NCBI GenBank assembly: GCA_964482735.1
Contig: CAYZYV010000002.1
Span: 86,061 to 150,060, forward strand
DNA length: 64,000 bases
Reading direction: 5' to 3'
From: an uncultured Candidatus Saccharibacteria bacterium
GTDB taxonomy: Bacteria; Patescibacteriota; Minisyncoccia; Phycocordibacterales; UBA9973
Made by a program: the position numbers and the translations under genes. This document shows positions 8,840-56,962 of the stretch, in pieces; the stretch's first letter is position 1; each line of letters opens with the position of its first letter. The notes beneath the pieces were generated by a model, which did no database searches, was not told the DNA's origin, and was given only the letters and a program-made list of their open reading frames with translations.

Positions 8840-9223
8840 TATGTGGGCCACAATAATTTGTTCGCCGTCGCTCACAAATTTTCCAGCCCCGGACTCAGCT
8901 GTTTTTCTTGCTAGAAAAACATGCTTCCGTCTTCACAAAAGCGAAAAAGACTGGAGCAGTCCAGTCTTTTTGAATTCGCGCTTTTGTGACCCTACAGAGA
9001 CCGCGAGTACACTTATCGACCTCGACTAAAACTTTTTCGTCAAAGTGGTATGCTTCGCATGTAAAATTTATGTGGTCACAAGTCACTAAATATTTTGCTC
9101 CAAGTCTTCGCAAAATATGTAAGTGCTCGCGACCCCAGCTCGCCAATTTTTCTGCTGAAAAATTATGTCTGCGCTTTCACAAAGCTAAAAACCCCAAGCA
9201 GTTGGGGTTTTCTTTACGCTTTG
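8840..9223 (-). repeat. tRNA-flanking structured repeat region (copy B, two units) downstream of tRNA-Glu, with internal copy of tRNA-Glu 3' end
   Basis: Read on the minus strand after tRNA-Glu: hairpin AAAACCCCAACTGCTTGGGGTTTT, then GAAAGCGCAGACATAATTTTTCAGCAGAAAAATTGGCGAGCTGGGGTCGCGAG ... ACTTGTGACC ..., then TCTCTGTAGGGTCAC, which is a copy of the tRNA-Glu 3' end at 8982-8996. A second unit follows: GAAGACGGAAGC-hairpin-CAGCTGAGTCCGGGGCTGG. Confidence 0.45.
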
Positions 9224-9295
9224 TGACCCTACAGAGAATCGAACTCTGATTACCGGCTTGAAAAGCCGATGTCCTAACCGTTAGACGATAGGGCC
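9224..9295 (-). tRNA. tRNA-Glu (anticodon TTC)
   Basis: Acceptor GGCCCTA/TAGGGTC, anticodon stem TCGGC/GCCGG with loop TTTTCAA, T-arm CAGAG-TTCGATT-CTCTG. Confidence 0.85.
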
Positions 9296-9336
9296 AAATA
9301 TATTTTTTACTACTGTATTCTGTATTGCTATTATCT

Positions 9337-9392
9337 TGGCTTTTCAAAAAGCCGATGTCCGCTATTTTCTAACTTGGTTAGACGATAGGGCC
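9337..9392 (-). pseudogene. Partial degenerate duplicate of the tRNA-Glu 5' half (GGCCCTATCGTCTAAC...GACATCGGCTTTT)
   Basis: The segment repeats the tRNA-Glu acceptor, D-arm and anticodon-stem sequence with a 17-nt insertion. It lacks a T-arm and acceptor 3' strand. Confidence 0.45.
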
Positions 9393-9488
9393 GTAAAAAA
9401 TTTTGTAAGCAAAATGTTTGAATCAAAATTCTTCAAAACAGCAAAAACAGTATAGCATTTTTAAATAAAAAATCAACTCCTACATAAA

Positions 9489-9526: not shown

Positions 9527-9853
9527 TTAATTCACTATGGTTTTAATTCCCGTATTTCTATCTATGTTTATCCTTTTCTCGTTTATAGTATTTAGATAAG
9601 TATTTAGTATTCCATAAACGGCAATCATGATAAACATACCAATCAATCCATATGTTATTTTTTTATTTGTTTCCTCTCGAATGTTTTTGTTGTCTGTTTG
9701 TATAAAATATTGTACAAGACCATACAAAAAGTAAAAAGTAGCCAAAGCAAACAATAGAATAATCAATGGGTTGATTAATATTCTATTTATACTACCTATC
9801 ACAGACGCAACGCTTGCCTCTGCTATTGGAATTGTTAAAAATTGAAAAATCAT
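9527..9853 (-). CDS. Small secreted two-TM protein, paralog 1 of 5 (T4SS/TrbC-VirB2 pilin-like family, tentative)
   Basis: Signal peptide, a hydrophobic helix (LIILLFALATFYFLYGLVQYF), a short basic loop, then a second helix (ITYGLIGMFIMIAVYGIL). Confidence 0.4.
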   Translation of the reverse strand: MIFQFLTIPIAEASVASVIGSINRILINPLIILLFALATFYFLYGLVQYFIQTDNKNIREETNKKITYGLIGMFIMIAVYGILNTYLNTINEKRINIDRNTGIKTIVN

Positions 9854-9868
9854 AATGACTAAACAAGA

Positions 9869-10240
9869 CTAGCAAGTTATTCCCATTGCTGGATTTGGAA
9901 CACAAGGAATGTGTTCTTTTCTTAGCTGTTCTGGTCCTACGTTAAATGTATTTGATACAACGGATAAGATTCCCCAAAATGCTACTATCAAGAATAATCC
10001 AACCAAAGCTGGTATGATATTGTCTTTTGCTTTCTTCTTTTGAGCTTCGTCCTTAGTTAATGTATATTTTATAACTGTCCCGATGAAGTAAATTACTGCT
10101 ACTGTAACCAATATAGGAGTCACATAACCCAAAAGGTTACCGATAGTGAACATAATGTCCCCTGCTGTAGTGTCAGTAGCAAAAGCTATCATAGGTGCAA
10201 AACCCATAATGGACAAAACTGGTATTAAAATCTTTTTCAT
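9869..10240 (-). CDS. Small secreted two-TM protein, paralog 2 of 5
   Basis: Same architecture as paralog 1: signal peptide, TM helix, KKKAK loop, second TM helix (ALVGLFLIVAFWGIL). Confidence 0.4.
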   Translation of the reverse strand: MKKILIPVLSIMGFAPMIAFATDTTAGDIMFTIGNLLGYVTPILVTVAVIYFIGTVIKYTLTKDEAQKKKAKDNIIPALVGLFLIVAFWGILSVVSNTFNVGPEQLRKEHIPCVPNPAMGITC

Positions 10241-10358
10241 AACTTATAATTTTTAATAATAATCTTTATAATTTTGTTTACAATCGACCTGATTGTAAAA
10301 ACTCTTTCAACTAACTTATATTATACCACTTATTTCTTTAAAATACAGCAACGTAAAG

Positions 10359-10814
10359 TTATTGTTGTGTCGACGGAATTTGTGTTACTGGTAACTGTGG
10401 CATTTCATTTTTTACATTGAATGTGTCAGTGGCCACCTTAACGATACCCCACATAGCAGTCATCACAAACAAGGCTATTAGGCCACCTGTAATGAAACTC
10501 TTCCCTTTCTTTTTCTCTTCTGTGTTATCTGGATTTAAATAAAATTTTATAATTCCATAAAGAAATCCAACAGTTGCAAGCATAAACAAGAAAGGAACCA
10601 GAACCTGCATCAAAAGACAACTGGCCCAAGTAATAATTCCGGTAACGCTACCCATACTTGCACTCTTACAATTTGCAGAACCAATCAATGGATCAGCAGC
10701 ATAGGCAAACGATGTAATACCGATTATTCCAAAAACCACAAGGCTTAACAAAAATATTTTTCTTCTCATGTGTTTATTAAACGTTACTCTTAATTTCTTC
10801 GACCGTTGTACCAA
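10359..10814 (-). CDS. Small secreted two-TM protein, paralog 3 of 5
   Basis: Same architecture: helix FLFMLATVGFLYGIIKFY, EEKKKGK loop, second helix GGLIALFVMTAMWGIV. Confidence 0.4.
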   Translation of the reverse strand: MVQRSKKLRVTFNKHMRRKIFLLSLVVFGIIGITSFAYAADPLIGSANCKSASMGSVTGIITWASCLLMQVLVPFLFMLATVGFLYGIIKFYLNPDNTEEKKKGKSFITGGLIALFVMTAMWGIVKVATDTFNVKNEMPQLPVTQIPSTQQ

Positions 10815-11205
10815 TAGCTTCTGCTATAACAAAAGCTCCAAGTAGTAAAGCTCCACCAATTAACGTATAAGTTAAAGAACTCTTGGCTGTTTTTAGTTTA
10901 TCGGGGCTTCCCTGTGCTTGTACAAAAAGAAAACCGGTATATATAATCGCAAGTATCAAAATTGGAACACCAACCTGTAATGCTATCTCTATGGCTTTTT
11001 TTACAAAGGACGGAATATCTGTAAGATTTTCACCAAGGGGATTATTTATTTTTGTGGTAACCACTATCTTGTCTGGTGAAGCTTCAGCTGTGGTTTGAGT
11101 CTTAAACATAAGAGACCCTACTATCATTGAAAAAATCATAAACACAAAACTTAAGCTTAGAATTCCAGAATATATTGTATATTTTTTATTTTTTAAATAT
11201 TTCAT
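10777..11205 (-). CDS. Small secreted two-TM protein, paralog 4 of 5
   Basis: Same architecture: helix ILILAIIYTGFLFV, KLKTAK loop, second helix LIGGALLLGAFVIA. The ORF-track start overlaps the upstream gene; the true start may be internal. Confidence 0.35.
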   Translation of the reverse strand: MKYLKNKKYTIYSGILSLSFVFMIFSMIVGSLMFKTQTTAEASPDKIVVTTKINNPLGENLTDIPSFVKKAIEIALQVGVPILILAIIYTGFLFVQAQGSPDKLKTAKSSLTYTLIGGALLLGAFVIAEAIGTTVEEIKSNV

Positions 11206-11221
11206 AACCTAAAAATTAATT

Positions 11222-11635
11222 TTAATAACTTGTTAAATAACTTTCTCCATTAAAACCGAACCCTTTCAATATAGTATCGACAATCAACCAAGAACACAAA
11301 ACCAGTAAATATCCAAGTAAAGAGTTTTTAATTATTTTCTTTGCTTTATTTTTAGTTGTTGCATTCCCTGATGAGGTCATATACAAAAAGCCAGCATATA
11401 TAAATAAAATAGCAAATATAGGTGTAATCAGGTATTTAACAGCCCAATCTATTATGTAATTCAACATCGTCATGAAATAATCAAAACCACAGGCGTCTTC
11501 AAATGTTCCATCTGGTAGTGCTTTGGTATTACAAACAGGAACCAGTCCACTCATTTGGACTTCTTCAGCCATAATGACTCCTGGGATAATTAAGATAGAT
11601 AATGTTATGACGTGTGCTAATATTTTTTTAAACAT
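11222..11635 (-). CDS. Small secreted two-TM protein, paralog 5 of 5
   Basis: Same architecture: helix IFAILFIYAGFLYM, TKNKAKK loop, second helix LLGYLLVLCSWLIV. Confidence 0.4.
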   Translation of the reverse strand: MFKKILAHVITLSILIIPGVIMAEEVQMSGLVPVCNTKALPDGTFEDACGFDYFMTMLNYIIDWAVKYLITPIFAILFIYAGFLYMTSSGNATTKNKAKKIIKNSLLGYLLVLCSWLIVDTILKGFGFNGESYLTSY

Positions 11636-30499: not shown

Positions 30500-30576
30500 T
30501 TTTATCTTTAGATTAAATATGATAATATGTAAATATAATTTAATATTTGAGTAGCCTAAACCAATAAGTAATTATT

Positions 30577-30690
30577 GGCATGGTGAATAAGTCCCCGTAA
30601 AAGATAAAGAACTCCTAGTCAGAGTTTGCCTTTTACGGGGCTGTATCTGGAAACGGATACAGGTGGGTTAAAATCCACCATGCTGGCTGG
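30577..30690 (+). ncRNA. Multi-stem (cloverleaf-like) structured RNA candidate upstream of the 30724 ORF
   Basis: Outer stem GGCATGGTG/CACCATGC. Inner stems CCCCGTAAAAG/CTTTTACGGGG (enclosing the small hairpin AACTC-CTAGTCA-GAGTT), CTGTATC-TGGAAAC-GATACAG and GTGGG-TTAAAAT-CCAC. Followed by GGGAGC-TTTTT-GCTTCC. Confidence 0.3.
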
Positions 30691-31257: not shown

Positions 31258-31770
31258 ATGAAGAGAGAAACATATTTAATTTGGATAATTTTATTGATGA
31301 TAACTGTTGGTAATTTGTTTTTTACTTATAAACATTCTCAAAATATTGCTATAGCACCAGAGAAAAGTAATATGTTTATGGATGATATTTCTCAATGCCC
31401 AGACACGAATACCAGTGATATGTATGTTTGTCTTTATAATTTAGCAGAGACAATAAACAAAGAAGCAGATACCCTTGCTAATAAACTCATTACTCAAGCT
31501 CCTATTCGCCTAAAAGAAATAATAACAACTCAAAAAGGACCAGCTTCGTTTGTTTATGGTGGTAAAGATTTTTTAACTGATTTGCCTATACAAGTAGAAA
31601 AAGCACAAAAAGCTAAAGATGACTATATAAACAGTGTTTGTAATTTAAATTCGATGAAAATCTATGGTGGTAGTGGTGTGGATCTTGAAATAGAAGCATG
31701 TAAATACCATTTTACTAATGAATATTTACAAATACTTAAAAATTTAGAAAATGGGTTAACGGAAGAATAA
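31258..31770 (+). CDS. DUF1311 (LprI lysozyme-inhibitor-like) domain protein
   Basis: Signal/TM, then the paired-Cys pattern CPDT...YVCLYNL...ADTLANKL and CNLN...YGGSG...EACKYHF typical of DUF1311. Confidence 0.5.
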   Translation: MKRETYLIWIILLMITVGNLFFTYKHSQNIAIAPEKSNMFMDDISQCPDTNTSDMYVCLYNLAETINKEADTLANKLITQAPIRLKEIITTQKGPASFVYGGKDFLTDLPIQVEKAQKAKDDYINSVCNLNSMKIYGGSGVDLEIEACKYHFTNEYLQILKNLENGLTEE

Positions 31771-31775
31771 TTTTA

Positions 31776-32648
31776 CTAAAGACTTATATTGCCATTCTCG
31801 TCACATTTATAATTTTTGAAAAAATCTAGAACTCCTTTTTGTAAAGGATTTTTTGCCAATTCATTATAAACAAGTACAATGTCTTCACCTAAAATTTCTG
31901 AATGATTTAGTACGGTATTTTTTGTGTACATAACGGCACTTATACCCTCATGTTCTTTTTCAAGGAAAAAAGTCATAGGAACCTTACTTCCATTTTTCTT
32001 TAATATAAAAGGAATTGTGCTCCATCCATATTTTAATGGTCCACCATTTATCGGGCGAGATATAGTTTGATAACCTACAGCAAATACCGCCCTAAGTATC
32101 AACGGGATTGAAGCATCAACATGATCAAGAGCACCTCTAGATACAGCTATAACAAATTGATCAGAATCTTTTACTATTCCATCTTCTATATACTTTTCAT
32201 ACTTTTCTTTTAAAACAGATGCAATTCGTATAAGCATTTCATCACTTGGAACATTTTGAACAATACCAGTAATTGTTTCTGGAACCCTATCTTCTCCTTT
32301 CCCTTTTTCACAAGCAACACACTCAATCCAAATTTTTTTACCTTCATATTCAATTAGAATATCAGGACCTATGTCTTTAGATGAAAAAGTAATTCCTTTT
32401 TCCAATAATACACAACCAAGATACATTTCCCATGTTCTTTGATGAAACTTTTTTTTAATTTCTTTTAAGAAATTACTGTCAGCATATTGGTAATATTTTT
32501 GATAAAGAGAATCAAATTTATTTTTCCTTTCTTTTATTGATCCGCTTGTAACATAATAACTATCATAATTGGAATATTTTTTTATTAATGTCTGAAGTTC
32601 TGTTTCGGTTGTAATAAGTGGAAAATTATCTGTAAACAAATATTTCAT
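31776..32648 (-). CDS. Hypothetical 290-aa protein, third gene of the higB-higA/immA operon; weak PD-(D/E)xK-like signature
   Basis: Starts 2 nt after the upstream gene's stop. The segment GPDILIEYEGKKIWIECVACEK is the only nuclease-like motif; the rest is unrecognised. Confidence 0.35.
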   Translation of the reverse strand: MKYLFTDNFPLITTETELQTLIKKYSNYDSYYVTSGSIKERKNKFDSLYQKYYQYADSNFLKEIKKKFHQRTWEMYLGCVLLEKGITFSSKDIGPDILIEYEGKKIWIECVACEKGKGEDRVPETITGIVQNVPSDEMLIRIASVLKEKYEKYIEDGIVKDSDQFVIAVSRGALDHVDASIPLILRAVFAVGYQTISRPINGGPLKYGWSTIPFILKKNGSKVPMTFFLEKEHEGISAVMYTKNTVLNHSEILGEDIVLVYNELAKNPLQKGVLDFFKNYKCDENGNISL

Positions 32649-32650
32649 TT

Positions 32651-33712
32651 TTATGCAAATTTTAACCTAGGTCTTAAACTAGATACCATATTCCATGGAA
32701 CTTTTTTATCATGACACAACCTACCAGCAACGATGCCAGGATGAACTCCTAAACTTTTTGCAAAATTAATCACGCCATCTCTTGTTAATGGCTTCTTTAA
32801 GAAATCTATATAGTTTTCTTCTGGTATTAATTTATCACTGGCAAAATCATCGGCTTCTTTTTCCTTCTCTTGAACAATAGATAATTCTTTATTATCAAAC
32901 TCAATAAATTTCTCTTTTTTACCATGTAATATTAAATGTCCTAATTCATGATATAAATTAAACCAAAAAATATCTGCCCATGAGTTATAAATACTCAGCT
33001 GTATTACAGGATTATTATTAATCCACCTAACAGCCCCACTTACTCCACTACCTGAAAAATGAGGAATATATACTAAAGCTACTCCGGCTTGATTTAAAAT
33101 TTTAATTACTTCTTTTGAAAAATCTTCCGGTTTTTTTACTGATAGTAATTTAATTTGTGATAAAGATTCTTTTAGCTTTATTTCGGAATATTCCGGAAGA
33201 ACATTTTTTTTAGATTCCAACTCACCACACCTAAGCCATGTTGCAATAACTTCACTTTTAATATTTAGATTATTTTTTTTACGATAAGCAACAGTTTCTG
33301 TTGTCTGAACATATGACAAAGAATTAACCCCAAAAAATCTCCAGAGATTTTCAACTTTTTTATAGTTATTTGTGGTTTTTTCAACAAATCCTCGTTTTGC
33401 AAGTTCTGCATAAGGGAATTTAGAAATCATTTCTGTTTCTTTTTTAATTATTGAAATTCTTTCAATTCTAGCTCTAGTTTCTTGATATTTTTTTTCAAGA
33501 TTAACCCAAAAGGAAGCTGATCCACCTAAAGCATTTTCTAAAAGTAGTGCAGTCTCAACAGTTATGGAAGCTTCTCCATTTATTATTTGACTTATATGTT
33601 TCTCTGTGAGACCTGTTCTCTCGCTGAGACTTTTTTGAGTCATTCCTTCACGATCTAGGGCTTTTGAAATGGTATACCCGGGGTGTATTGCTTTGTTTGG
33701 ATTATAAACCAT
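32651..33712 (-). CDS. HigA-type XRE-family HTH antitoxin fused to ImmA/IrrE-family HEXXH metallopeptidase domain
   Basis: N-terminal IHPGYTISKALDREGMTQKSLSERTGLTEKHISQIINGEASITVETALLLENALGGSASFWVNLE is a HigA-like HTH. C-terminal YHELGHLILHG is the HEXXH of COG2856-type peptidases. Confidence 0.7.
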   Translation of the reverse strand: MVYNPNKAIHPGYTISKALDREGMTQKSLSERTGLTEKHISQIINGEASITVETALLLENALGGSASFWVNLEKKYQETRARIERISIIKKETEMISKFPYAELAKRGFVEKTTNNYKKVENLWRFFGVNSLSYVQTTETVAYRKKNNLNIKSEVIATWLRCGELESKKNVLPEYSEIKLKESLSQIKLLSVKKPEDFSKEVIKILNQAGVALVYIPHFSGSGVSGAVRWINNNPVIQLSIYNSWADIFWFNLYHELGHLILHGKKEKFIEFDNKELSIVQEKEKEADDFASDKLIPEENYIDFLKKPLTRDGVINFAKSLGVHPGIVAGRLCHDKKVPWNMVSSLRPRLKFA

Positions 33713-33722
33713 AAATTTATAT

Positions 33723-34085
33723 TTAATGATAATTGATAAATATTTCTATTATTAAAATAAATGTTATACTTTTATAATTATCTATTCTAAAATTTGGGTC
33801 TCCATCATGATTCGGTTTAAATATAATTCTATATTTATTATCAACATCAACAGCAAAACATCCTTTATATTCTCCCTTTAATGGGTGGGGGCGATAACTA
33901 TGTGGAACATCAGATAATGCATCAGCTGAAATAAGTATGTTTAATGTGTTCAGAATATCCGTAGCATAATCAATTCCTTTTTTGTTATATCTTTTACATA
34001 AGGCATTGTAATCATTAACAAGGGCCTCGTGTTTTGGATTATCAAATACTATTCTCATATTAACAAATATTACTAAAAACTGCAA
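33723..34085 (-). CDS. higB: HigB-like (RelE/ParE superfamily, plasmid-maintenance killer) toxin
   Basis: C-terminal HPLKGEYKGCFAVDVDNKYRIIF...YH matches the HigB killer-protein pattern. Directly upstream of the HigA-like gene. Confidence 0.6.
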   Translation of the reverse strand: MQFLVIFVNMRIVFDNPKHEALVNDYNALCKRYNKKGIDYATDILNTLNILISADALSDVPHSYRPHPLKGEYKGCFAVDVDNKYRIIFKPNHDGDPNFRIDNYKSITFILIIEIFINYH

Positions 34086-34196
34086 CTTTTTTATTTACCA
34101 TTTTGGTAAATAAAAAAACTAATAAATCGTTTATTTTCTGATGTTTATTATGGTATTTAATTATATATAATAAGTTATCCACAAGTATTATTTAAA

Positions 34197-35885
34197 TTAT
34201 TTCTTAAGCCTTCCTTTTGAGCCAATTTTATTATCGTCCACAATATCTCGGAGTTGATTGATTAGAACCATAATTTCTTCAATTTTTTTTACAATGCGTT
34301 TTTGTTCAGCAAGAGGTGGGAGTGGTATATTAGCAGATTTAACTTTCTCTGCATTAAGATTTTTTACAACTGCACCAGAAACTATATCTGCGAATTGTTG
34401 AAAAAATACGTTTGAGGATAACATATAATAAAAAAAATCTCTAAAGGTTTCTTTGTAATAGGGTTTTAAAACCAGCCAGCCGTCGTGAATACATCCATCA
34501 ATCTTTAATATATATGGTCTCCCAAAACTCATTGAGTTAGTAAGAAGTAAATCTCCAACATGTACCATTCTTGTCTTTTTTAAACCAGCTTTAATAATTT
34601 TTTCTTTAGTAGAATATATATATTTTCCTCCTTGTTCTGTGTCTCCAATCTTTATCCAATTCAATCCGTCATCATTATTCGTTATATAACTTTCAATTGG
34701 ACGTGGTGAGCCACCTCTTTCAACTGAAAATACATCACCGAGCTTAACCCATTTCCATGATTTTGGAATTTCAAAAAGTAAATCTTTATTATCCATAAAA
34801 ATTGACTCCTTATTTTTCTTTTTTTTATTATCATTTATTTCTATTCTTTTCTTTTCAATATTAATAAAAGATAATAGATCTTCCGCAGTTCCTTCTTTTT
34901 TATCCTGCGGAACTAATTTACCAGAAACAGCAAGGCTTAAAATTGCATCTTCTAACTCTTTAATATCTTCAGGCGTTTTTACCAATTCGGCTAATTGTTT
35001 TAGCGCAATTTTTGTTTCTCCTTTTCCGAGAGATTGCATGGCGCTACGAGTAAGACGGGAGCGAATTTCATCACGTTCATTTTTCCTAATTTCAAGCTTG
35101 TCTAATTGTTTTATTACTTCTTCAATTTTTTTTACAATGCGATTTTGTTCTTTGTATGGAGGCAAAGGAATAACAAAAGATTTTATATCGTCCATCGATA
35201 TATTATCATTTGTAGAATTTTTCTTTTTATTAATAAAATCTTGTATATAAGAAGAAAGGATTACATAATTAATATATTCCGAAATAATATTATCGTTAAT
35301 CTTTATAGTTGCAACTCTTTGATTTGTTACCATTTTTTCATCTATATTTCTTACAAAATAACTCTTACCAACTGTACCACCAGTCATACATAAAAGTATA
35401 TTTTCATTATTTATTTCGAATTGAGCTAAACTCGAATAATAATCATGACGTACTATTTTATTATTTTTAAATCCATTTTCGTCAAAATCAGATATCTTAA
35501 TTACTCTAACTCCAGTATTTTTAAAATTTTGGCTTTTAAAGGCATATCCACCATTAATGTCAGATAAATTATTTAATCTTGTCCATTTCCAAGATATAGG
35601 AATTTCAAATGGGATTTCTTCTTCATTTATATTTAAAAGTTTTTTTTCTGTATCATTCTTTAAACATTCTGATTTAATTTTATTAAATAATTCTTCACCA
35701 GTTCCTTCTTTTTTATCCTGTGGAACTAATTTACCAGACATAGCCAAAGTAAGTATCGCTTTACGAAGGCGATTTATTCCATCTGGTACTTCTATGAAAT
35801 CATCAATATTATTAGCAATAGTTTTTATATCATTTAGTATCATGGTGAGAAAGCGCTTCGGTGATAACTGTGCGAATTTGCTCAA
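34197..35885 (-). CDS. hsdS: Type I restriction-modification specificity subunit HsdS (two target-recognition domains)
   Basis: Duplicated conserved regions AILTLAMSGKLVPQDKKEGT / AILSLAVSGKLVPQDKKEGT and IPLPPYKEQNRIVKKIEE / IPLPPLAEQKRIVKKIEE flank two variable domains. The annotated start overlaps hsdM; the real start is probably an internal Met. Confidence 0.8.
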   Translation of the reverse strand: MSKFAQLSPKRFLTMILNDIKTIANNIDDFIEVPDGINRLRKAILTLAMSGKLVPQDKKEGTGEELFNKIKSECLKNDTEKKLLNINEEEIPFEIPISWKWTRLNNLSDINGGYAFKSQNFKNTGVRVIKISDFDENGFKNNKIVRHDYYSSLAQFEINNENILLCMTGGTVGKSYFVRNIDEKMVTNQRVATIKINDNIISEYINYVILSSYIQDFINKKKNSTNDNISMDDIKSFVIPLPPYKEQNRIVKKIEEVIKQLDKLEIRKNERDEIRSRLTRSAMQSLGKGETKIALKQLAELVKTPEDIKELEDAILSLAVSGKLVPQDKKEGTAEDLLSFINIEKKRIEINDNKKKKNKESIFMDNKDLLFEIPKSWKWVKLGDVFSVERGGSPRPIESYITNNDDGLNWIKIGDTEQGGKYIYSTKEKIIKAGLKKTRMVHVGDLLLTNSMSFGRPYILKIDGCIHDGWLVLKPYYKETFRDFFYYMLSSNVFFQQFADIVSGAVVKNLNAEKVKSANIPLPPLAEQKRIVKKIEEIMVLINQLRDIVDDNKIGSKGRLKK

Positions 35886-37275
35886 GCACTTTTTTCACCT
35901 CTTGCTGTTTATTATGGTATGTTTCAAGTAATTCCTCTGGTGATTCAAGAACATCAACAGGAGTTCGAGGGTTCTTTATATCCAAGTTATAATTACGCTT
36001 GATAATTTCGTCTATAGAAACTTTCCACGCTTGATCATTTTCTTCACGATTATTCCACCATTTTGTCTCTTTTTCAAACTCATCAAATTTAATAGGGTTA
36101 GTCATCGAATATGCCTTTTGCCCTTCGGGGAGTGGATGCTCATAATACCAAATCTCCTTGGTTGGTTCACCTTTTGTAAAGAAAAGTAAGTTTGTTGCAA
36201 TAGTTGTATATGGGGCAAAAACACTCTTTGGTAAACGAACAATGGTGTGAAGATTACATTCTTCTAATAACTGTTTTTTGAGGGTTGTTTTCATACCTTC
36301 ACCAAACAAGGTTCCGTCGGGAAGAACCATACCTGCACGGCCATGTTTTTTAAGTAAACGCATAATAAGAACAAGAAAAAGATCTGCTGTTTCTCTTGTT
36401 TGAAATTCTTTTGGAAAATTAGATTCAATACCTGGCTCTTCAGTACCACCGAATGGAGGATTTGTAATAATACAATCTACCTTATCTGAATCTGTGTAAT
36501 CACGTATAGGTTTTTCTAGGGTGTTTCCACGGCGCATTGTCACAGGTTCTTCGATCCCGTGAAGCATCATATTGGTTATTAGAAGCATAAATGGAAGCGG
36601 TTTCTTTTCAACGCCATAGATACTCTGTTGAATTTTTTGTTCATCTTTAACTGATTTAACTTGTTTACGCATATGCTCAAGAGCATGTACCAAGAATCCT
36701 CCAGTGCCTACAGCTGGATCCATAACAGATTCACCAACTTTTGGATCTACCATTTCTACGACAAATTGAGTTACAGCACGAGGAGTATACATTTCTCCGA
36801 AATTACCAGCACTTTGTAAACTTTTTAAAAGACGTTCATATATGTCGTTAAAAGCATGACGATCTTTTGATGCATTGAAATCTATTTCATTTATTTTATT
36901 TATAACCTGTTTAAGTAAAGTACCTTTGCGCATAAAGTTATAAACATCCTTAAATGCCATACGTGTAAGGTCGGTTCTTTTGTTTCCTGATTCAGGAAGA
37001 TCTCTTAACCCAGGAAGTAAATCATTATTTACAAAATCAATGAGCTTATCTCCGGTCATCCCATCGAGAGGACCTGCCCATGTACGCCACTGATATTTTT
37101 TAGGAAGTGTAGGGATAAATTTATCTTTACGTATTTCAAGAGCTTTATCTTCATCATCTAAAATTTTTAGATAGATAAGCCAAACCATCTGAGACAAACG
37201 TGTAGCATCACCATCTACACCAACATCTTGGCGCATTATGTCTTGAATTGCTTTTATTGTTGATGGACTAAACAT
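35830..37275 (-). CDS. hsdM: Type I R-M DNA methyltransferase subunit HsdM (N6-adenine)
   Basis: Motif I DPAVGTGGFL and motif IV NPPFG. Confidence 0.9.
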   Translation of the reverse strand: MFSPSTIKAIQDIMRQDVGVDGDATRLSQMVWLIYLKILDDEDKALEIRKDKFIPTLPKKYQWRTWAGPLDGMTGDKLIDFVNNDLLPGLRDLPESGNKRTDLTRMAFKDVYNFMRKGTLLKQVINKINEIDFNASKDRHAFNDIYERLLKSLQSAGNFGEMYTPRAVTQFVVEMVDPKVGESVMDPAVGTGGFLVHALEHMRKQVKSVKDEQKIQQSIYGVEKKPLPFMLLITNMMLHGIEEPVTMRRGNTLEKPIRDYTDSDKVDCIITNPPFGGTEEPGIESNFPKEFQTRETADLFLVLIMRLLKKHGRAGMVLPDGTLFGEGMKTTLKKQLLEECNLHTIVRLPKSVFAPYTTIATNLLFFTKGEPTKEIWYYEHPLPEGQKAYSMTNPIKFDEFEKETKWWNNREENDQAWKVSIDEIIKRNYNLDIKNPRTPVDVLESPEELLETYHNKQQEVKKVLEQIRTVITEALSHHDTK

Positions 37276-37276
37276 A

Positions 37277-39646
37277 TTATTTGGTATACATTACATCTAA
37301 TAATTCATCGACTGTTTTAAAATATCCTTCCTTGCCACCAAATAATGAAACAAGTTCATAGTCGGTTCCAATAGAACGAAATGGTTCCAGTGTGAGAATT
37401 CTAACATTCTCAATATCTTTCAGGGTTACATCTGCATATTTTTGGAGTAAAGCCTCAAGAACTTCTCTTGCTTTTCCACTATATTTATCTAAATAATTTG
37501 AACGACGAACAGCTTCTATCCTTTCGTTCTTTTTCATCATTTTCTTATCATAACCAACGTGCATTATCAGATCAAAAAGATCAAACTCTGCACCAACTTG
37601 TTTTTGAAGTTCTTCAAGTGGAATTCCACTTGCGTCTATCTGATCAATGATTGCTTGGCGACGATCTGCTGATTGCCATGCTGTAAAGAAACTTTCAAGT
37701 GTTGGGTAATGCGTAAGAATATTCTTACGTGTAAAATCAGTTAATGACTGTGTTAGAAGTTTTCCATCAGGTCCAAGATATTGAACTTGTTCTTTTACTA
37801 CAGCATAAGGCACTCCACTTAAAGTAAATACTGGAGGTCTATCAATAACATCTAGAGATGACCCTTTTGAAAGAATAACGTCAACGAGTTTATCTTCATC
37901 CTCTTTTTCTTCAATAGTTAGTTCTGGTGGATCTTTTTCTGTTAATTCCTCTTCAATATTATCGTTTTCTCTTACTTCAAAAACACGTTCAGCAACTCCA
38001 TCAAAACCAGGATCGGCAAATAATTTTGTAACACCCTGAAAATCAATAATAGTAAACCACATTTTACCCTTATCTTCTCTTACACGAGTTCCACGACCTA
38101 TTATTTGTTTAAATTCAGTCATACTTTCTATTGGTTTATCAAGAACTATCAGTTTGCATGTTTGGGCATCAACACCGGTAGATAAAAGTTGTGATGTTGT
38201 AACTAATGTTGGATATTTTTCTTCAGGATCAATAAAACGATCCAGCTGGTTCTTTCCTTCTTCATCATCTCCCGTAATACGCATAACATAACGTGTATCT
38301 TCTAGTGATTTATCTCCTGAGGCATTTACTAATGCAGAACGCATACGTTCTGCATGTGCAGTTGTTCGGCAAAAGACAATGGTCTTAGCATAAGGATCAT
38401 TTATTGCATTAATATATTCAACTATTTTTTCAGCAACAATTTTGTCTCGCTGAGGAAAAATAACTGATTTGTTTATATCACGAAGTTCATAAATACGCTC
38501 TTCAACAAGGTTCCCATTGTCATCTATTGTACCAGGAGCAGGACGCCATCCGGTTATATCATTATCCAAGAGAACCCTTAATACTTTATATGGTGCTAAA
38601 AACCCATCATCTATACCTTGTTTTAATGAGTATGTATAAATAGACTCACCAAAATAATGAGTGGTGCTCGTGTCAGTTGTTTCTTTTGGTGTAGCTGTAA
38701 GTCCAAGGTGTGTAGCACTTGTAAAGTGATCAAGTATTTCATGCCATTCGCTATCTTCTGAGGCACTACCTCTATGACACTCATCTACTATTATCAAATC
38801 AAAGAAATCTTTTGGAAGTTTTTTGAATAATTTATCATTCTCTTCCTTTCCACTCATTGCTTGATATAAACCTAAAAATACCTCATATGCCATGAGTGAT
38901 CCTATATCATTAAAATCTTGACGAGAAATTTTTGTTAGAGCATTTCCAAAGTGTTTAAGATCGTTTACACGTGCTTGATCAACTAAAATATTTCTATCAG
39001 CAAGAAAGAGTATTCTTTTGGCGTTCCCAGATTTCCAAAGACGCCACATGATTTGTCCAGCAGTATAAGTTTTTCCTGTACCAGTTGCCATAACTAAGAG
39101 TAATCGCTTTTCACCTCGTGCAATGGCTTCAACAGAACGATCAATAGCTATTCTCTGAAAATATCGTGGTGATTTATTTGGATCATCTGAATAAAAAGGT
39201 GTTTCAATTGCAGTACGTAGTGTTGCAGATTCTCCTTTCCATTTTAAATAACGTTGGTAAAGTTCTTCTGGAGAAGGAAAATTATCTAAATTAAGAGAAG
39301 ATTCAGTCACTTCAGATATTCCGGTTCTATCATGAAAAAGATAACCATTTCCATTTGAAGAGAAAACAAAAGGCACATCAAGATTTTCTGCATAAACTAA
39401 AGCTTGTTGCATTCCTATACCAAGATCCTTATTTGAATGTTTTGCTTCTATAATTGCCAATGGTAAGTTAGGTCTATATTCAAGGAGAAAATCTACTTTC
39501 TTTTTTTCTCCACGCTTTGTAGTTTTTCCACTAACATGAATACGTCCCATTGTGTATGGATACTCCTCACGAATTTGTTGGTCTGTCCATCCAGAATTTA
39601 TTATTGATGGCCTTATTAATCTATTGCGTGTTTCTTCTTCGTTCAT
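37277..39646 (-). CDS. hsdR: Type I R-M restriction subunit HsdR (helicase-nuclease)
   Basis: N-terminal HsdR_N nuclease region, Walker A ATGTGKT, DECHRG (DEAD-box type) and helicase C motifs. 789 aa. Confidence 0.9.
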   Translation of the reverse strand: MNEEETRNRLIRPSIINSGWTDQQIREEYPYTMGRIHVSGKTTKRGEKKKVDFLLEYRPNLPLAIIEAKHSNKDLGIGMQQALVYAENLDVPFVFSSNGNGYLFHDRTGISEVTESSLNLDNFPSPEELYQRYLKWKGESATLRTAIETPFYSDDPNKSPRYFQRIAIDRSVEAIARGEKRLLLVMATGTGKTYTAGQIMWRLWKSGNAKRILFLADRNILVDQARVNDLKHFGNALTKISRQDFNDIGSLMAYEVFLGLYQAMSGKEENDKLFKKLPKDFFDLIIVDECHRGSASEDSEWHEILDHFTSATHLGLTATPKETTDTSTTHYFGESIYTYSLKQGIDDGFLAPYKVLRVLLDNDITGWRPAPGTIDDNGNLVEERIYELRDINKSVIFPQRDKIVAEKIVEYINAINDPYAKTIVFCRTTAHAERMRSALVNASGDKSLEDTRYVMRITGDDEEGKNQLDRFIDPEEKYPTLVTTSQLLSTGVDAQTCKLIVLDKPIESMTEFKQIIGRGTRVREDKGKMWFTIIDFQGVTKLFADPGFDGVAERVFEVRENDNIEEELTEKDPPELTIEEKEDEDKLVDVILSKGSSLDVIDRPPVFTLSGVPYAVVKEQVQYLGPDGKLLTQSLTDFTRKNILTHYPTLESFFTAWQSADRRQAIIDQIDASGIPLEELQKQVGAEFDLFDLIMHVGYDKKMMKKNERIEAVRRSNYLDKYSGKAREVLEALLQKYADVTLKDIENVRILTLEPFRSIGTDYELVSLFGGKEGYFKTVDELLDVMYTK

Positions 39647-39650
39647 AAAA

Positions 39651-40496
39651 TTATTTTCTTACATTTTCATCTAATGTTTTACCTTTATCATCTTTCCAAG
39701 CAGTCCAGCCATTGCAAGACCTACCAGCTATACAATCAGCAGCAGCACTTGGACTTTTGAAAACATAATCATTTTCAAAAATAAATGACTCCTCATTGAA
39801 TTTTTTTAGTATACCTTCGTTTTCCAGCTTCTTTCTTAATAAAGATCCACTATGATCTATAAAAGCAGGAGTTTCTTTAATTCTAGATAAAGATCCTTTA
39901 TATACAATAAATTCTCCGCTTTCTAATAATGAGCCTTTCCCATTCCCTGCTTTATTTGTAGCATCTGAAAATTCATATATTTTTTTATCTGAAATAGATT
40001 CAGTAATAACACTAAATAATTGATATCCTAATGTTTCTAGAATAAATTGAACTTTTTCAAAAAAATCTTCTACTGAAATTTTATCAATGTCTGATAGTGA
40101 ATTCTCTGGTGGTTGCACCTTATTTTGTATTACCATTCGATTTACTTTGTGCGCCAAAACAGTAGCTTTATGTTCTAAATATTTAACATGAGCTTTATTT
40201 AAAACACCGGTAAAAATTGCGGCTGTATCCCAGAAATCTTTATTTGAATCGTGATTAGTAATTCTATTATAGAAATTTTCAGATTCTCCTATGTAGGCAA
40301 GATCATCACCTGATTCTTCATCAAAACCGAACAAAACATAAAGACCTGGCTTATCTATATCAGGAAAATCTTTTAATTCTTTTAAATTTTGACGTGGCAA
40401 CAAAAAACATTTGCCAGACCATCCAGGAACTTCTATTATTTTCATTCCATTAGGGTTTCCTCCTGGAACAAGAATTTGTATGGCTTTTGATTTCAT
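39651..40496 (-). CDS. GIY-YIG nuclease family protein (DUF4357-like C-terminus), R-M associated
   Basis: GLYVLF...AYIGESENFYNRITNH is a GIY-YIG core. The gene is immediately downstream of hsdR. Confidence 0.55.
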   Translation of the reverse strand: MKSKAIQILVPGGNPNGMKIIEVPGWSGKCFLLPRQNLKELKDFPDIDKPGLYVLFGFDEESGDDLAYIGESENFYNRITNHDSNKDFWDTAAIFTGVLNKAHVKYLEHKATVLAHKVNRMVIQNKVQPPENSLSDIDKISVEDFFEKVQFILETLGYQLFSVITESISDKKIYEFSDATNKAGNGKGSLLESGEFIVYKGSLSRIKETPAFIDHSGSLLRKKLENEGILKKFNEESFIFENDYVFKSPSAAADCIAGRSCNGWTAWKDDKGKTLDENVRK

Positions 40497-40623
40497 AAAG
40501 TTATAGTCTCATAATACTACTTTTTGCCTTATTCTCAAAGAGTGATTTAAGGAATTTGATTTTTTAAATAAATATGATACGATTATATTAGAAGCACTTT
40601 TAAATTAAATGTCAACGAACTAA

Positions 40624-40675
40624 AAATGGTGGTATTCCACCAACAAACCAAAAAATGGTGGTATTCCACCAACTG
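40624..40675. repeat. Two tandem 23-bp iterons AAAAATGGTGGTATTCCACCAAC, each with an internal inverted repeat; putative replication origin
   Basis: Direct read. Located 230 nt upstream of the Prim-Pol/AAA gene in a 400-nt AT-rich intergenic region that also contains TTATCAATTATCAATAAG. Confidence 0.55.
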
Positions 40676-40900
40676 AACTAGATAAGCTCGACAGCTTCCA
40701 TTATCAATTATCAATAAGTCATGCGCATTTATGCTGTCAGTTTAGTTGTATATAAAAAATTTAATATCAAAAAATTGTAAACATAAGTAGCACCTGGCAG
40801 AGGTGTTTTTTTGTTTTTATTAAGTATGTCGATTCTTATCTAATGAACCAACACCTCACATTAATTAGTTTTTTATGTAGGTCTTGGATAATAACAATAC

Positions 40901-42712
40901 ATGTTCGTTTCCAGGACCTACATAAGGAACAACGAACATGTTATGAATGAAAACATAAAAAATAAAAAAGAGTCTGCTATTTATTATCAACAAATGGGTT
41001 TAAGTATCATTCCAACTGGTAGAAATAAAAAACCACTAATTGATTCGTGGAAACAATATGAAAGTATACGCCCAACAATCGAAGAAATTACTACATGGTG
41101 GGATAAATGGCCAGAAGCAAATCCTGCACTTGTTACAGGTAAGGTATCAGGAGTTGTCGCTCTTGATTTAGATAAAAAACATAATAGAACATCAAAAGAA
41201 TTTCAAATACCTCCGACAGCCTCAGCAATATCTGGAAATGGAGGTGAGCATTTCTTTTTCAAATATCCATTAAATGGTCCAGTTAAGACGTCATCTGCTA
41301 TAAGCGGATATGGCGTTGACTCTCGAGGGGATGGAGGATACATACTTCTCTCACCATCTGAAAATGAAAATGGAGGCAAATATACATGGATTGTTCCTTT
41401 TGAGTCAAAAGAAGATTTGGCTGATATGCCTGATTGGTTATTAAGTCTTACTACTGAAAAGGAAAATACTAAGAAGTGGTTAGATGGAATGAATGGTGTA
41501 TCAGAAGGTTCTAGAAATGACACAGCGACCTCAATGGCAGGAAAGATAATTAGTTCGACTAGTCCTGAATTATTAGAAAGTATTGGATGGGACCAATTCA
41601 AGATTTGGAATGATAGAAACATTCCACCTCTTCCAGAAAAGGAATTACGAAATGTTTGGGAAAGCATAAAAAGAAAACATGTAAATAAAGAAAAAACTAA
41701 TTTTGATGAACATCAATTTGTTTCTCTTGGAGATTTACTAAATGAACCTGAGGAAACAATAAGTTGGGTAATAGAAGATATGTTGCCTGCTGGTGGTTTT
41801 TCTATTATGGTAGCAAAACCAAAAGTTGGAAAATCAACGCTCGTAAGACAATTAGCACTGTGCGTTGCTCGCGGAGAATCCTTCCTAGAAAGAAAAACAG
41901 AAAAAGGTGGTGTTTTATATGTGGCATTGGAAGAAAAACGAGGAGAAGTTAAAAACCATTTTAAACTTCTTGGAGCTGACGGCACAGAAGATTTAGGCGT
42001 ATATGTTGGATCTGCTCCTGGAGAAGCATATACATGGCTTGAAAATGAAGTAAAAAAGAAACACCCAATATTGATAATTATTGATACTCTTTTCCGATTC
42101 GCTCGCGTTGCAGATGTTAGTGATTATGCAAAAGTTACAAATGCTCTAGATCCACTCTTAAAATTAGCTAGAGAAAATTCCACCCATTTAATGTGTCTTC
42201 ATCATGCAAGAAAAATGCCTGGGGATGGAGCTGATGCTACTCTTGGGTCTACTGCCATTTTTGGAACTGTAGATACCGCCATGTTACTTAAGAGAAATAA
42301 AGACGGTAAAAGAACCCTCGAAACTCAACAAAGATATGGAAGAGATATGGAAGAGACTGTATTGATGTTTAACGTTGATTTAAAAACAATAACTCTGGGT
42401 AGTTTAAAAGAAGAAGAGGATGAAAAGAAAATCGAGGAGTTAATTATAGATTTATTGAAATCATCAAAAGAACCAATTGATGAAAAAACCATTCGAGATG
42501 AAATTGAAGGAAAAACTACACTAAAAAGTATTGCACTTAGATCATTATTTCAAGGTGGAAAAATAACAAGAACCGGTTTAGGTAGAAAAGGAGATCCTTA
42601 TCTTTATTCTTGTTCCCTTGTTCCCGATATATGTGAGGAACAAGAAAACAAGAAAGAGATTGGTCCTAAAGATATCCAATTAAAAGATAACTTGGAGAAT
42701 TTTACCCTTTAG
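40901..42712 (+). CDS. Bifunctional DNA primase-polymerase (Prim-Pol) N-domain fused to AAA_25/RepA-like ATPase
   Basis: N-terminal YYQQMGLSIIPTGRNKKPLIDSWKQY...ALDLD is a Prim-Pol domain. Central Walker A KPKVGKST and the DTLFRFAR Walker B region indicate a RecA-like ATPase. Confidence 0.7.
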   Translation: MFVSRTYIRNNEHVMNENIKNKKESAIYYQQMGLSIIPTGRNKKPLIDSWKQYESIRPTIEEITTWWDKWPEANPALVTGKVSGVVALDLDKKHNRTSKEFQIPPTASAISGNGGEHFFFKYPLNGPVKTSSAISGYGVDSRGDGGYILLSPSENENGGKYTWIVPFESKEDLADMPDWLLSLTTEKENTKKWLDGMNGVSEGSRNDTATSMAGKIISSTSPELLESIGWDQFKIWNDRNIPPLPEKELRNVWESIKRKHVNKEKTNFDEHQFVSLGDLLNEPEETISWVIEDMLPAGGFSIMVAKPKVGKSTLVRQLALCVARGESFLERKTEKGGVLYVALEEKRGEVKNHFKLLGADGTEDLGVYVGSAPGEAYTWLENEVKKKHPILIIIDTLFRFARVADVSDYAKVTNALDPLLKLARENSTHLMCLHHARKMPGDGADATLGSTAIFGTVDTAMLLKRNKDGKRTLETQQRYGRDMEETVLMFNVDLKTITLGSLKEEEDEKKIEELIIDLLKSSKEPIDEKTIRDEIEGKTTLKSIALRSLFQGGKITRTGLGRKGDPYLYSCSLVPDICEEQENKKEIGPKDIQLKDNLENFTL

Positions 42713-42716
42713 GATC

Positions 42717-42899
42717 ATGGTCAAAAAAGAAACTATAATTGAATTTATGGGGGCCTTAAAAGAAGAATACAACAGAGATGTGGACTTCAAAGAGGCATCA
42801 ATAATACTAAACGATTTAGTTTCTTATTTTGACTTGTTAGCTAAAATAGACCATGTGCAAGATGAGGTAAAAAATGATATAATGTATGAGCCAGACTGA
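42717..42899 (+). CDS. Small 60-aa hypothetical protein
   Basis: ORF only. Confidence 0.3.
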   Translation: MVKKETIIEFMGALKEEYNRDVDFKEASIILNDLVSYFDLLAKIDHVQDEVKNDIMYEPD

Positions 42900-43007
42900 A
42901 GTTAAAAATATATTTGTTTATAAAAGCGGAGTAATAACTGCTTCAGTCTGGCGATTGAGGATTAAGTTGTTACTCCACTTTTGTTTATAAATCTAACCTA
43001 AAAACAT

Positions 43008-44570: not shown

Positions 44571-44630
44571 GGATCGAACCTACGACCAATCGCTTAACAG
44601 GCGACCGCTCTACCGCTGAGCTACCACGGA
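44559..44630 (-). tRNA. tRNA-Asn (anticodon GTT)
   Basis: Acceptor TCCGTGG/CCACGGA, anticodon stem GTCGC/GCGAT with loop CTGTTAA, T-arm GTAGG-TTCGATC-CCTAC. Confidence 0.85.
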
Positions 44631-54436: not shown

Positions 54437-55978
<1,542 letters not shown>

Positions 55979-56670: not shown

Positions 56671-56743
56671 GCCCTGTTAGCTCAGCTGGTAGAGCAGCTC
56701 CCTCTTAAGGAGATGGTCGGAGGTTCGATTCCTCCACGGGGCA
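56671..56743 (+). tRNA. tRNA-Lys (anticodon CTT)
   Basis: Acceptor GCCCTGT/ACGGGGC, D-arm GCTC-AGCTGGTA-GAGC, anticodon loop CTCTTAA, T-arm GGAGG-TTCGATT-CCTCC, discriminator A. Confidence 0.85.
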
Positions 56744-56943: not shown

Positions 56944-56962
56944 GAGAGAAAACTATTTCATA

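Follow-up and report, generated by a model that had tools for sequence, protein, structure and literature searches.

Non-coding tandem units at a Saccharibacteria tRNA-Glu gene belong to a structured element family tied to tRNA, tmRNA and topA gene ends

What process leaves two related non-coding units, and between them a second copy of a tRNA 3′ end, directly behind a bacterial tRNA gene? We addressed this question at the tRNA-Glu locus of an uncultured Candidatus Saccharibacteria bacterium, using a stretch of 64,000 nt (assembly GCA_964482735.1, contig CAYZYV010000002.1, positions 86,061 to 150,060, forward strand), hereafter the window. A sequence-only reading had described the locus as a patch of roughly 550 nt in which the modules of a hairpin element recur in a different order, and had taken it for repeated insertion and excision scars. 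We found that the two units, U1 and U2, belong to a structured family that is spread across Patescibacteria and tied to the 3′ ends of tRNA genes, transfer-messenger RNA (tmRNA) genes and the topoisomerase I gene topA. The insertion part of the earlier reading was largely right, and its rearrangement part was wrong. The elements may be non-coding integrative cassettes that bring a replacement 3′ end for the target gene, carry a folded site resembling a phage attachment (att) site and accrete in tandem, an interpretation to which we give an even chance.

The tRNA-Glu units and the family to which they belong

Coordinates at the tRNA-Glu patch are quoted in the minus-strand reading. The tRNA-Glu gene on the minus strand and the hairpin with a GCAG loop described earlier were both found, at 9295-9223 and 9211-9188 (the loop being CTGC in the minus reading), and all the named sequence modules were located. 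The hairpin, AAAACCCCAA-CTGC-TTGGGGTTTT, is terminator-like and forms the inner part of a larger trailer hairpin, h1 (Table 1), whose 3′ arm is a short antisense segment, S′. The tRNA end followed by AAA makes up the 18-mer TCTCTGTAGGGTCACAAA (9237-9220; direct repeat DR1), which recurs exactly at 9000-8983 (DR2), 237 nt downstream of the original. A repeat of this type would be expected 0.06 times by chance, with up to three mismatches allowed; the copy had been recognized before, at 8982-8996, and is real at the slightly different position given here. Between the repeats lies U1, with a P1 of AGC/GCT, a long P1b hairpin AATTTTTCAGCAGAAAAATT, then GGGG and a long P2, GGTCGCGAGCACTTA...TAGTGACTTGTGACC. 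Its 3′ extension closes with a second element terminus, ATAAGTGTACTCGCGG (9016-9001), which resembles the 3′ strand of P2, and this extra module is also seen after GTGACC in many copies of family A, the canonical form, elsewhere. Behind DR2 come a second trailer hairpin, h2, again with a terminator-like inner hairpin and a CTGC loop (8971-8944), and U2, composed of GAAGACGGAAGC, the P1b hairpin TTTTTCTAGCAAGAAAAA, GAGTCCGGGGCT and a P2 with a GTGGCC end. U2 is more divergent than U1, and no third repeat follows it.

The second related unit of the earlier reading is therefore real (core 8946-8833), and repeat family D1 also ties the two units together. The partial 5′ half of tRNA-Glu reported upstream was recovered at 9392-9338; its D-loop region and anticodon loop contain additional bases, and it is probably a displaced or duplicated 5′ portion of the gene. 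The patch holds no credible open reading frame (ORF), again in keeping with what had been noticed. The proposed rearrangement, in contrast, did not survive alignment: U1 (aligned over 9187-9062) and U2 (8946-8833) match the covariance model of the family, R1, end to end and colinearly, the CAGCAG-type hairpin being the long P1b arm in both and P2 being long in both, and their thermodynamic folds agree with the model alignment (z -4.7 and -4.4). It is about as probable as the converse that the stretch 8833-9237 represents two tandemly accreted non-coding cassettes, the newer U1 and the older U2.

The family was delimited by scanning a one-genome-per-species collection with the sequence pattern GAAAGACGGAG-N6-20-GAGTCGGGG, which matched in at least 119 genome loci. 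Nearly all the matches listed are from Patescibacteria (Paceibacteria, Nomurabacteria, Saccharibacteria and Yonath-, Wolfe-, Taylor- and Zambryskibacteria), and about five of those listed are chance matches inside coding DNA. Over 98 loci comprising 662 kb, the covariance model found 133 copies; loci are cited below by number, as in L140. An alignment of 60 distinct copies yielded a three-way junction in which the closing stem, P0, is built by the flanks. P1 is GAC/GTC, covarying to GTC/GAC, ACC/GGT and GCC/GGC in copies outside the search pattern, and bears a GGA/GA internal loop and the variable hairpin P1b; two G residues follow P1b, and then a long P2 with a bulged A, an AGCA-type loop and a GTGACC end. 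In the alignment, 84.6% of cells are paired, a value that falls to 34-43% if the partners are slid; two-sided changes occur at 25 pairs, and the covariation score of 0.439, against about 0.10, was reached by none of 500 shuffles. A G.U pair is kept in 58 of the 60 sequences, so that the fold is specific to the tRNA-sense strand.

No family in Rfam 15 covers the elements at the gathering thresholds, nor was anything credible obtained at E<=10 in three element regions; at threshold the database returned only tRNA, tmRNA, rRNA, RNase P and LOOT. Full-text literature searches did not turn up a description either. To the extent covered by Rfam 15 and the literature searched, the family is undescribed.

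Strings such as GAAA and CUGAUGA-like motifs had prompted the idea of a hammerhead or other ribozyme. This candidate was rejected, since GAA is the complement of T54-T55-C56 of the T-loop (GTG at topA) and no ribozyme model matches. A subset of loci (L094, L053, L104, L045, L075, L035 and L007) carries GATGA or CTGATGA directly before GAAAGAC in place of the T-loop complement GAATC; there, tandem G.A-type mismatches face the GA of the T-loop copy and may represent a K-turn-like form of P0.

Gene ends, the antisense segment and the gain and loss of units

A tRNA or tmRNA gene lies on the same strand no more than 200 nt upstream in 87 of the 133 copies; eight others follow another unit in an array and nine are at locus edges. 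The upstream genes comprise 17 tRNA identities and tmRNA, with the topA 3′ end as a further target, and about half of the tRNAs in the loci carry an element. The sequence after GTGACC is a copy of the tRNA from C56/R57 in the T-loop to N73/74: its identity to the tRNA is 91-100% at positions 56-63, 73-85% at positions 64-74 and 49% at position 75, and falls to background beyond. S′ lies directly upstream of the core, is often split by a hairpin with the consensus GCAAGCCAACTGCTTGGCTTGC, and includes the GAA of the conserved GAAAGAC, the complement of T54-T55-C56. Together these facts give the layout gene end (S), trailer hairpin (h), S′, core and second S. Where DR1 and DR2 differ, S′ pairs with DR1 only in 43 cases and with DR2 only in 12. 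One subfamily, with the same trailer, stands behind tRNA-Lys, tRNA-Arg and tRNA-Glu in different genomes and has the matching repeat each time. Mimicry of an acceptor stem or minihelix, as a substrate of RNase P, RNase Z or the CCA-adding enzyme, was considered for the element and rejected: the best complement averaged 5.70 of 7 positions against 5.46 in shuffled sequences, and all seven paired in 9 of 82.

The copies behind topA are informative about the history of the repeats. At L074 (690-1300) and L005 (minus strand, about 7600-7900), cores form arrays of four or five units, each core being followed by a copy of the gene from ...CC/AAGAC... to the stop codon. The first displaced copy is identical to the gene at 50 of 73 nt (68%) and 20 of 23 amino acids, with 14, 5 and 2 differences at codon positions 3, 1 and 2, respectively. 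This preponderance of third-position differences indicates that the displaced copy was once a working gene end. Over the first three displaced copies, identity declines with distance (48/69, 28/69 and 24/69). The 10-nt S′ is exactly complementary to the species' own gene in both cases, CACCAAGACT in L074 and CACCAAAACC in L005, showing that S′ spans the crossover and covaries with synonymous changes. The gene end resembles a T-loop (CCAAGAC vs. TTCAAGTC), so that ends of this kind in protein genes can be targets.

Two other origins, one of the repeats and one of S′, were rejected. Target-site duplication does not account for topA copies that differ mostly synonymously, or for L140, where the DR2 behind tRNA-Val is an allele other than the tRNA that it follows. 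Snap-back synthesis as the origin of S′ is contradicted at topA, where S′ complements the crossover-proximal 10 nt, about 60 nt from the hairpin, rather than the bases adjacent to it.

Filled and empty states of the same site were observed. In L140, tRNA-Ser and tRNA-Val are separated only by the 15-nt spacer TTTGGATACAAATTT; in the window, the site is longer by 114 nt (h, S′, core and repeat), after which the second repeat leads into the same trailer, TTTGGATA, as in L140. Behind tRNA-Val, the second repeat and the terminator AAAAAAATCTCC...GGAGATTTTTT are orthologous in the window, L137 and L140, and the second repeat is thus the resident end. Different core families were also found at the same tRNA.

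The number of units varies in a similar manner. At tRNA-Glu, L122 has U2 only, the window and L120 have U1 and U2, L140 has three units, and L137 has retained the units and lost the tRNA. In L122, an intact tRNA-Glu(CTC), whose 3′ end is the DR2 sequence of the window, is joined directly to U2. A U1-like unit, 82-90% identical to U1, occurs behind tRNA-Lys in L130, L131 and L134 and is absent from the window, L132, L133 and L135, the strains with and without it being 90-100% identical. Tandem identical units occur in L068 and L043. The extension module of U1 is 97.7% identical in L140 and L137, and U2 is 96-99% identical in L122, L120, L140 and L137; in the comparison with L140 and L137 it retains 96-97% identity, where the adjacent META and YceG genes have 74-78%. 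Either recent horizontal spread or selection on sequence would explain this conservation.

These comparisons bear directly on the sequence-only reading, which would have been undermined by an identical arrangement, free of length polymorphism, at the sister loci. Unit content instead differs between strains and species, and the tRNA-Ser site is empty in L140. Repeated insertion at a tRNA therefore stands, though the insertions are not merely local scars: the family is Patescibacteria-wide with strong covariation, and neutral decay does not fit the identity of U2 beside the more divergent flanking genes.

In four loci (L039, L069, L007 and L035), accessory genes lie upstream of the S′-core-repeat segment, in L039 and L069 between tRNA-Ala and the core. 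This cargo includes an APH-like kinase, a MOSC protein, a NERD nuclease and DUF4209/DUF7380 proteins.

Fragments of the tRNA-Glu 5′ part like that in the window were also present in L120 (2320-2400) and L122 (1260-1310), with different internal insertions. The anticodon-stem type of each pseudo 5′ half, UUC or CUC, agrees with that of the tRNA downstream of it (CTC in L122), which suggests that replacement or duplication events also occur on the 5′ side of tRNA genes. L120 and L122 contain further 5′ fragments, and inside one of them, a decayed tRNA-Glu 5′ fragment, GGCCCTAT(C/T)GTCC...TAACGGTT, a 39-nt palindromic unit, CCCGCCTGCAAAAGCTATGCTTTAAGCATTGCGGGCAGG, appears three times in L120 (2140-2255) and twice in L122 (1110-1200), and not in the window strain; this unit seems to belong to a separate family of miniature repeats. 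An array of five small type IV secretion system (T4SS)-pilin-like genes (PF18895) lies directly upstream of the tRNA-Glu locus (9527-11635, minus strand). In L122 this flank is exchanged for unrelated genes, with a breakpoint about 17 nt before the first pseudo-tRNA fragment. The repeats break short-read metagenome assemblies at tRNA loci: in L123-L129, contigs that carry the META gene of the window (8204-8737), seven independent assemblies stop 70-250 nt upstream of META, inside U2 or U1. If the insertion reading holds, the pseudo-tRNA pieces left by the elements can also mislead annotation.

Three further cassettes occur in the window (Table 1). Behind tRNA-Ser(CGA), 96 nt separate the gene from an exact 19-nt copy of its end, the two repeats, CAAATCCTGTACCCTCCGC, being at 3245-3263 and 3129-3147. 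Behind tRNA-Lys(CUU), DR1 (56726-56747) and DR2 (56876-56897) are 22 nt long and differ at two positions; DR2 is followed by a terminator hairpin and then by a 19-nt antisense of DR2 at 56930-56948. The stem of this hairpin (56898-56948, plus strand) is extended by TTTTGTGCCCCGTGGAGAG, the antisense of the displaced tRNA-Lys end, which makes an S-hairpin-S′ palindrome without a core; in L130 and L131, the U1-like unit stands where the loop of that hairpin would be. Behind tRNA-Val, the cassette has an S′ split by the hairpin GCAAGCAAACTGTTTTGCTTGC (2962-3005), a family-B core (2874-2961, ending in GTGTACTCACGG) that differs from family A and recurs in other genomes, and a displaced 18-nt tRNA-Val end (2856-2873) with two differing positions. 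The tRNA-Ser/tRNA-Val unit has one promoter (3375-3347) and a sole called terminator (2854-2819), and the core within it is accordingly predicted to be co-transcribed with both tRNAs.

Table 1. Elements and associated features in the window (direct repeats DR1 and DR2, trailer hairpins h1 and h2, units U1 and U2).
Feature	Position	Strand	Basis
tRNA-Glu(UUC), no encoded CCA	9223-9295	-	ARAGORN; Rfam 63.4 bits
DR1: tRNA-Glu about positions 60-74 + AAA, upstream copy of 18-nt direct repeat	9220-9237	-	repeat family D4
Trailer hairpin h1, outer stem TCACAAAGC/GCTTTGTGA taking in last tRNA bases	9177-9226	-	repeats I8, I15
U1 core	9074-9187	-	covariance model R1 25.5 bits, E=5.5e-6; fold z = -4.73
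U1 3′ extension: GCGAAGC-type mini-hairpins and stem AAAAGTTTTAGTCGAGG	9001-9073	-	
DR2: displaced copy of tRNA-Glu 3′ end	8983-9000	-	
Trailer hairpin h2, outer stem TCACAAAAGCG/CGCTTTTGTGA	8933-8989	-	repeats I9, I11
U2 core	8833-8946	-	covariance model R1 22.4 bits, E=5.8e-5; fold z = -4.44
Hairpin ACATAGA...TCTATGT after U2, homologous to start of U1 extension	8814-8844	-	repeat family D3
Pseudo-tRNA-Glu 5′ part, about positions 1-41	9338-9392	-	repeat families D2, D5
Promoter-like site TTGATT-16-TATACT, TG-extended, 5′ of tRNA-Glu region	9449-9476	-	consensus match only
Canonical family-A copy between tRNA-Ser(CGA) and tRNA-Val	3135-3224	-	covariance model 91.7 bits
Canonical family-A copy after tRNA-Lys(CUU)	56799-56888	+	covariance model 93.6 bits
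Family-B cassette after tRNA-Val	2856-3005	-	

The only tRNA gene of the window with no such element is tRNA-Asn (44558-44630, minus strand), and no second copy of its end was found in the window. An island-like block (31258-44570) adjoins its 3′ end and contains a large serine recombinase gene (43008-44570), with a 13-nt overlap between the stop of this gene and the tRNA end. A PrimPol/AAA_25 primase (40901-42712), a type I restriction-modification system (34197-39646), a DUF4357 protein and an HTH/IrrE-like pair (32651-33712) are also encoded in the block. A LOOT RNA (RF03000, 86.1 bits; 30553-30679, plus strand) lies just beyond the far end of the block. RNase P RNA (53605-53963, minus strand) is located 474 nt downstream of the 16S rRNA gene (54437-55978, minus strand), and tRNA-Lys with its cassette about 700 nt upstream of the latter on the opposite strand. 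The window has no 23S or 5S rRNA gene, and the rRNA genes therefore appear to be unlinked.

A cassette model and its competitors

The integrative interpretation can be put as a scheme. A cassette would consist of a replacement 3′ end for the target (in tRNAs, from T-loop C56/R57 to N73/74), a trailer hairpin that doubles as terminator, S′, which would be complementary to the target across the crossover point, and the three-way-junction core. It would recombine at the T-loop of a tRNA or tmRNA gene, or at the look-alike site in the topA 3′ end. The target gene would be rebuilt with the cassette's own 3′-end copy and would use the trailer hairpin as its terminator, and the resident 3′ end and terminator would be shifted downstream, directly after GTGACC, there to decay. 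New cassettes would enter beside the gene, giving rise to arrays. The free form might be a circle or a folded single strand in which S′ pairs with the cassette's own 3′-end copy and closes P0, with the crossover presumably placed where P2 stacks on P0, on the continuous strand ...CTTGTGACC/GATTCC... (slash, crossover). The fold could itself be the att site, or could recruit a putative trans-acting recombinase.

There is a substantial chance that the recombination mechanism is an unusual one that depends on nucleic-acid structure or base pairing. A bolder proposal holds that superphylum-wide, protein-less cassettes choose their targets by base pairing of S′ and that the three-way junction is the active module, either as a folded single-stranded DNA att site for a host recombinase or as a catalyst in its own right (RNA or single-stranded DNA) that gives a circular free form. 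We regard this proposal as conceivable but doubtful.

A number of observations weigh against the cassette scheme. It does not explain the way in which a cassette comes by the right 3′ end when it meets a new tRNA; one possibility is that strong selection favors short-patch conversion from the displaced copy. At L074, the first 30 nt of the fifth and most distal topA copy match the current gene end exactly (40/69 over the whole copy), a poor fit to copies that should be older and more decayed further out. The preference of S′ for DR1 could also stem from neutral decay of DR2, and in L083 the better partner of S′ is DR2. The allele difference at tRNA-Val in L140 is not confined to the 3′ end and extends over the whole tRNA body. 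If the high conservation of U2 reflects selection on sequence, this too would count against the scheme, and RNA-style covariation, conserved G.U pairs and the lack of a terminator between tRNA-Ser and tRNA-Val keep a role as RNA in play. Moreover, no recurrent integrase, transposase or reverse transcriptase was found among 866 clustered ORFs of the 8-kb loci. Pfam searches of the cargo ORFs showed other functions and no recombinase beside the cargo-bearing versions, and window ORFs of at least 150 amino acids include only the large serine recombinase at tRNA-Asn, with none beside the window copies. Neither an excised form nor an attP junction was seen. The 8-kb loci, the window and viral contigs, to which the search was confined, yielded no autonomous partner element sharing these ends; in the viral contigs, the strict pattern gave no matches, and the covariance model confirmed none of the 61 loci brought up by relaxed patterns.

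Some of these points are what a structured RNA serving the host would show. In such a case, the element would be a processed part of tRNA primary transcripts (for example an insulator, a protein-binding RNA, or an element for 3′ processing or stability); its inheritance would be vertical, and selection would keep it matched to the tRNA. Strong covariation and invariant unpaired bases over the whole superphylum are consistent with this, as are co-transcription between tRNA-Ser and tRNA-Val, the retention of U2 at 96-97% against about 75% for flanking genes, and the lack of a mobility gene for the elements in the loci or the window. However, empty orthologous sites and differing core families at the same tRNA mark the element as dispensable, units come and go among near-identical strains, and only about half of the tRNAs in the loci have one. 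Nor does a host role account for copies behind topA with displaced coding ends, for cargo islands that end in the same core, or for a downstream repeat that decays although it would close the RNA stem, with S′ following DR1 instead. We therefore consider a host RNA unlikely.

The conservation of U2 also admits an explanation with no dedicated recombinase, in which the segments hitch-hike on homology arms through natural transformation and homologous or microhomology-mediated recombination, the tRNA serving as left arm and the terminal copy of its end as right arm. Both flanks of the insert are indeed homologous to the most conserved genes of the genome; between species in which neighboring genes are about 75% identical, U2 and the U1 terminus keep an identity of 96-98%; the difference between L130 and the window resembles replacement between flanking homologies; and pilin-like gene arrays adjoin the locus. 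Yet the right arm would be only about 18 nt, the topA arms are only 68% identical, the repeat begins exactly at C56/R57 in dozens of different tRNAs, and the conserved fold and S′ are given no role, all of which makes this route quite unlikely.

Alternatively, the cassette may move through an RNA intermediate. The core would then be a small ribozyme, and S′-guided attack on a transcript would capture the target's 3′ fragment or circularize a molecule of 3′ end, hairpin, S′ and core, after which a reverse transcriptase acting in trans and recombination would fix DNA copies and tandem arrays. Retrozymes provide a precedent for circular-RNA retroelements without machinery of their own (PMC4918200). 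The pairing of S′ across the crossover recalls an internal guide sequence, the fold is specific to the sense strand and includes G.U pairs, identical units occur in tandem in L068 and L043, and the copied segment stops near an RNA 3′ end (N73/74 in tRNAs, the trailer hairpin in L137, past the stop codon at topA). On the other hand, the loci contain no reverse transcriptase, and known ribozyme families gave no match even at E<=10. Synonymous changes at topA and the match of S′ to the resident gene fit DNA replacement better than transcript capture, and cargo of several kilobases would be hard to move in this way. Such a route is decidedly improbable.

Finally, a guide RNA made of the core as scaffold and the 18-nt tRNA-end copy as 3′ guide, by which an RNA-guided nuclease or transposase would home to tRNA genes as with the TnpB omega RNA or the homing crRNA of type V-K CRISPR-associated transposons, suits the scaffold-plus-18-nt layout and the match to tRNA gene ends, but is largely refuted and can be set aside as extremely improbable, because no effector gene is nearby, S′ pairs with the first 7-9 nt of the would-be guide, the guide decays while cores stay intact, and at topA the copy consists of 66 nt of coding end in which the changes follow codon position.

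Comparison with known systems

If the cassette interpretation is correct, the small-genome bacteria of the candidate phyla radiation (CPR), in which few mobile elements have been recognized, would host an abundant, overlooked family of miniature integrative cassettes, which reshape tRNA, tmRNA and even topA gene ends and bring along accessory or defense-like cargo. These cassettes would place a defined, conserved nucleic-acid fold with a guide-like segment at a recombination junction, which would open the hunt for a recombinase, or for catalysis by RNA or single-stranded DNA, to direct testing. On the bolder proposal, base pairing of S′ would give the smallest bacterial genomes a novel and programmable route for DNA insertion at tRNA genes.

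A T-loop sublocation class of tRNA-gene integration was reportedly distinguished by Williams in 2002. The elements share several features with the islands and prophages that tyrosine integrases insert into tRNA and tmRNA genes: a regenerated target, a displaced 3′ fragment, a repeat from T-loop to 3′ end, the use of tmRNA as target, some cargo and tandem accretion. In such tRNA-gene (tDNA) islands, the split target is regenerated by sequence borne on the element and the displaced fragment lies at the far end (PMC4383910). Likewise, the elements have a direct repeat of the target 3′ segment with the intact gene at one end and the displaced fragment at the other, and occupied and unoccupied states of one site were found (tRNA-Ser in L140 vs. 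the window, U1 absent in L122, and the tRNA-Lys strains). Unlike tDNA islands, the cassettes have no integrase gene in or near them: no recombinase recurs among the 866 locus ORFs, the cargo ORFs have other functions, and none adjoins the window copies. They are mostly 100-250 nt long and non-coding, with a covarying three-way junction that abuts the crossover and an antisense segment that pairs with the crossover region, and a single core family is used at 17 tRNA identities, tmRNA and a protein gene.

Integron attC sites (PMC4889954, PMC2668188) resemble the elements in their order of core site, content, inverse core site, structured middle and core site, and in a structure formed by one strand. 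As in attC, imperfect inverted repeats fold on one strand with covariation (S′/S in P0, together with P1 and P2; 25 two-sided pair changes). The arrays, with the newest unit at the entry point, and the small, mostly promoter-less units are also reminiscent of integron cassettes. However, the junctions are GTGACC/GATTCC and similar instead of the R″/R′ consensus RYYYAAC/GTTRRRY; no IntI, attI or Pc platform was found, the entry points being many scattered tRNA genes; and the middle is a conserved three-way junction, as opposed to a variable hairpin, in a cassette that carries a replacement gene end.

The elements are small, non-coding, structured, multi-copy and, as we propose, mobilized in trans, as are retrozymes (PMC4918200). 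They differ from these in that no hammerhead or other known ribozyme was detected in the cassettes, which are known from sequence alone.

A host-supplied recombinase, such as we propose here, would have a parallel in another system. The CTX phage has a folded single-stranded attP that is used by the host XerCD. Here as there, two inverted target-like copies could fold into a duplex att site, and an internal inverted copy is kept near one end. In contrast to CTX, the target is not dif and there is no phage genome, none of the 61 viral-contig candidates having been confirmed.

Cis-mobilizable elements (CIMEs) are non-autonomous integrative elements flanked by att sites, and the tyrT locus of E. 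coli contains 178-bp repeats, each with the last 19 nt of tRNA-Tyr. Like these, the cassettes are short, lack recombination genes and lie in tandem behind a gene end, each with a copy of that end. Whereas CIMEs and tyrT repeats are lineage-local and have no conserved folded core, the cassettes form a superphylum-wide family with a defined structure.

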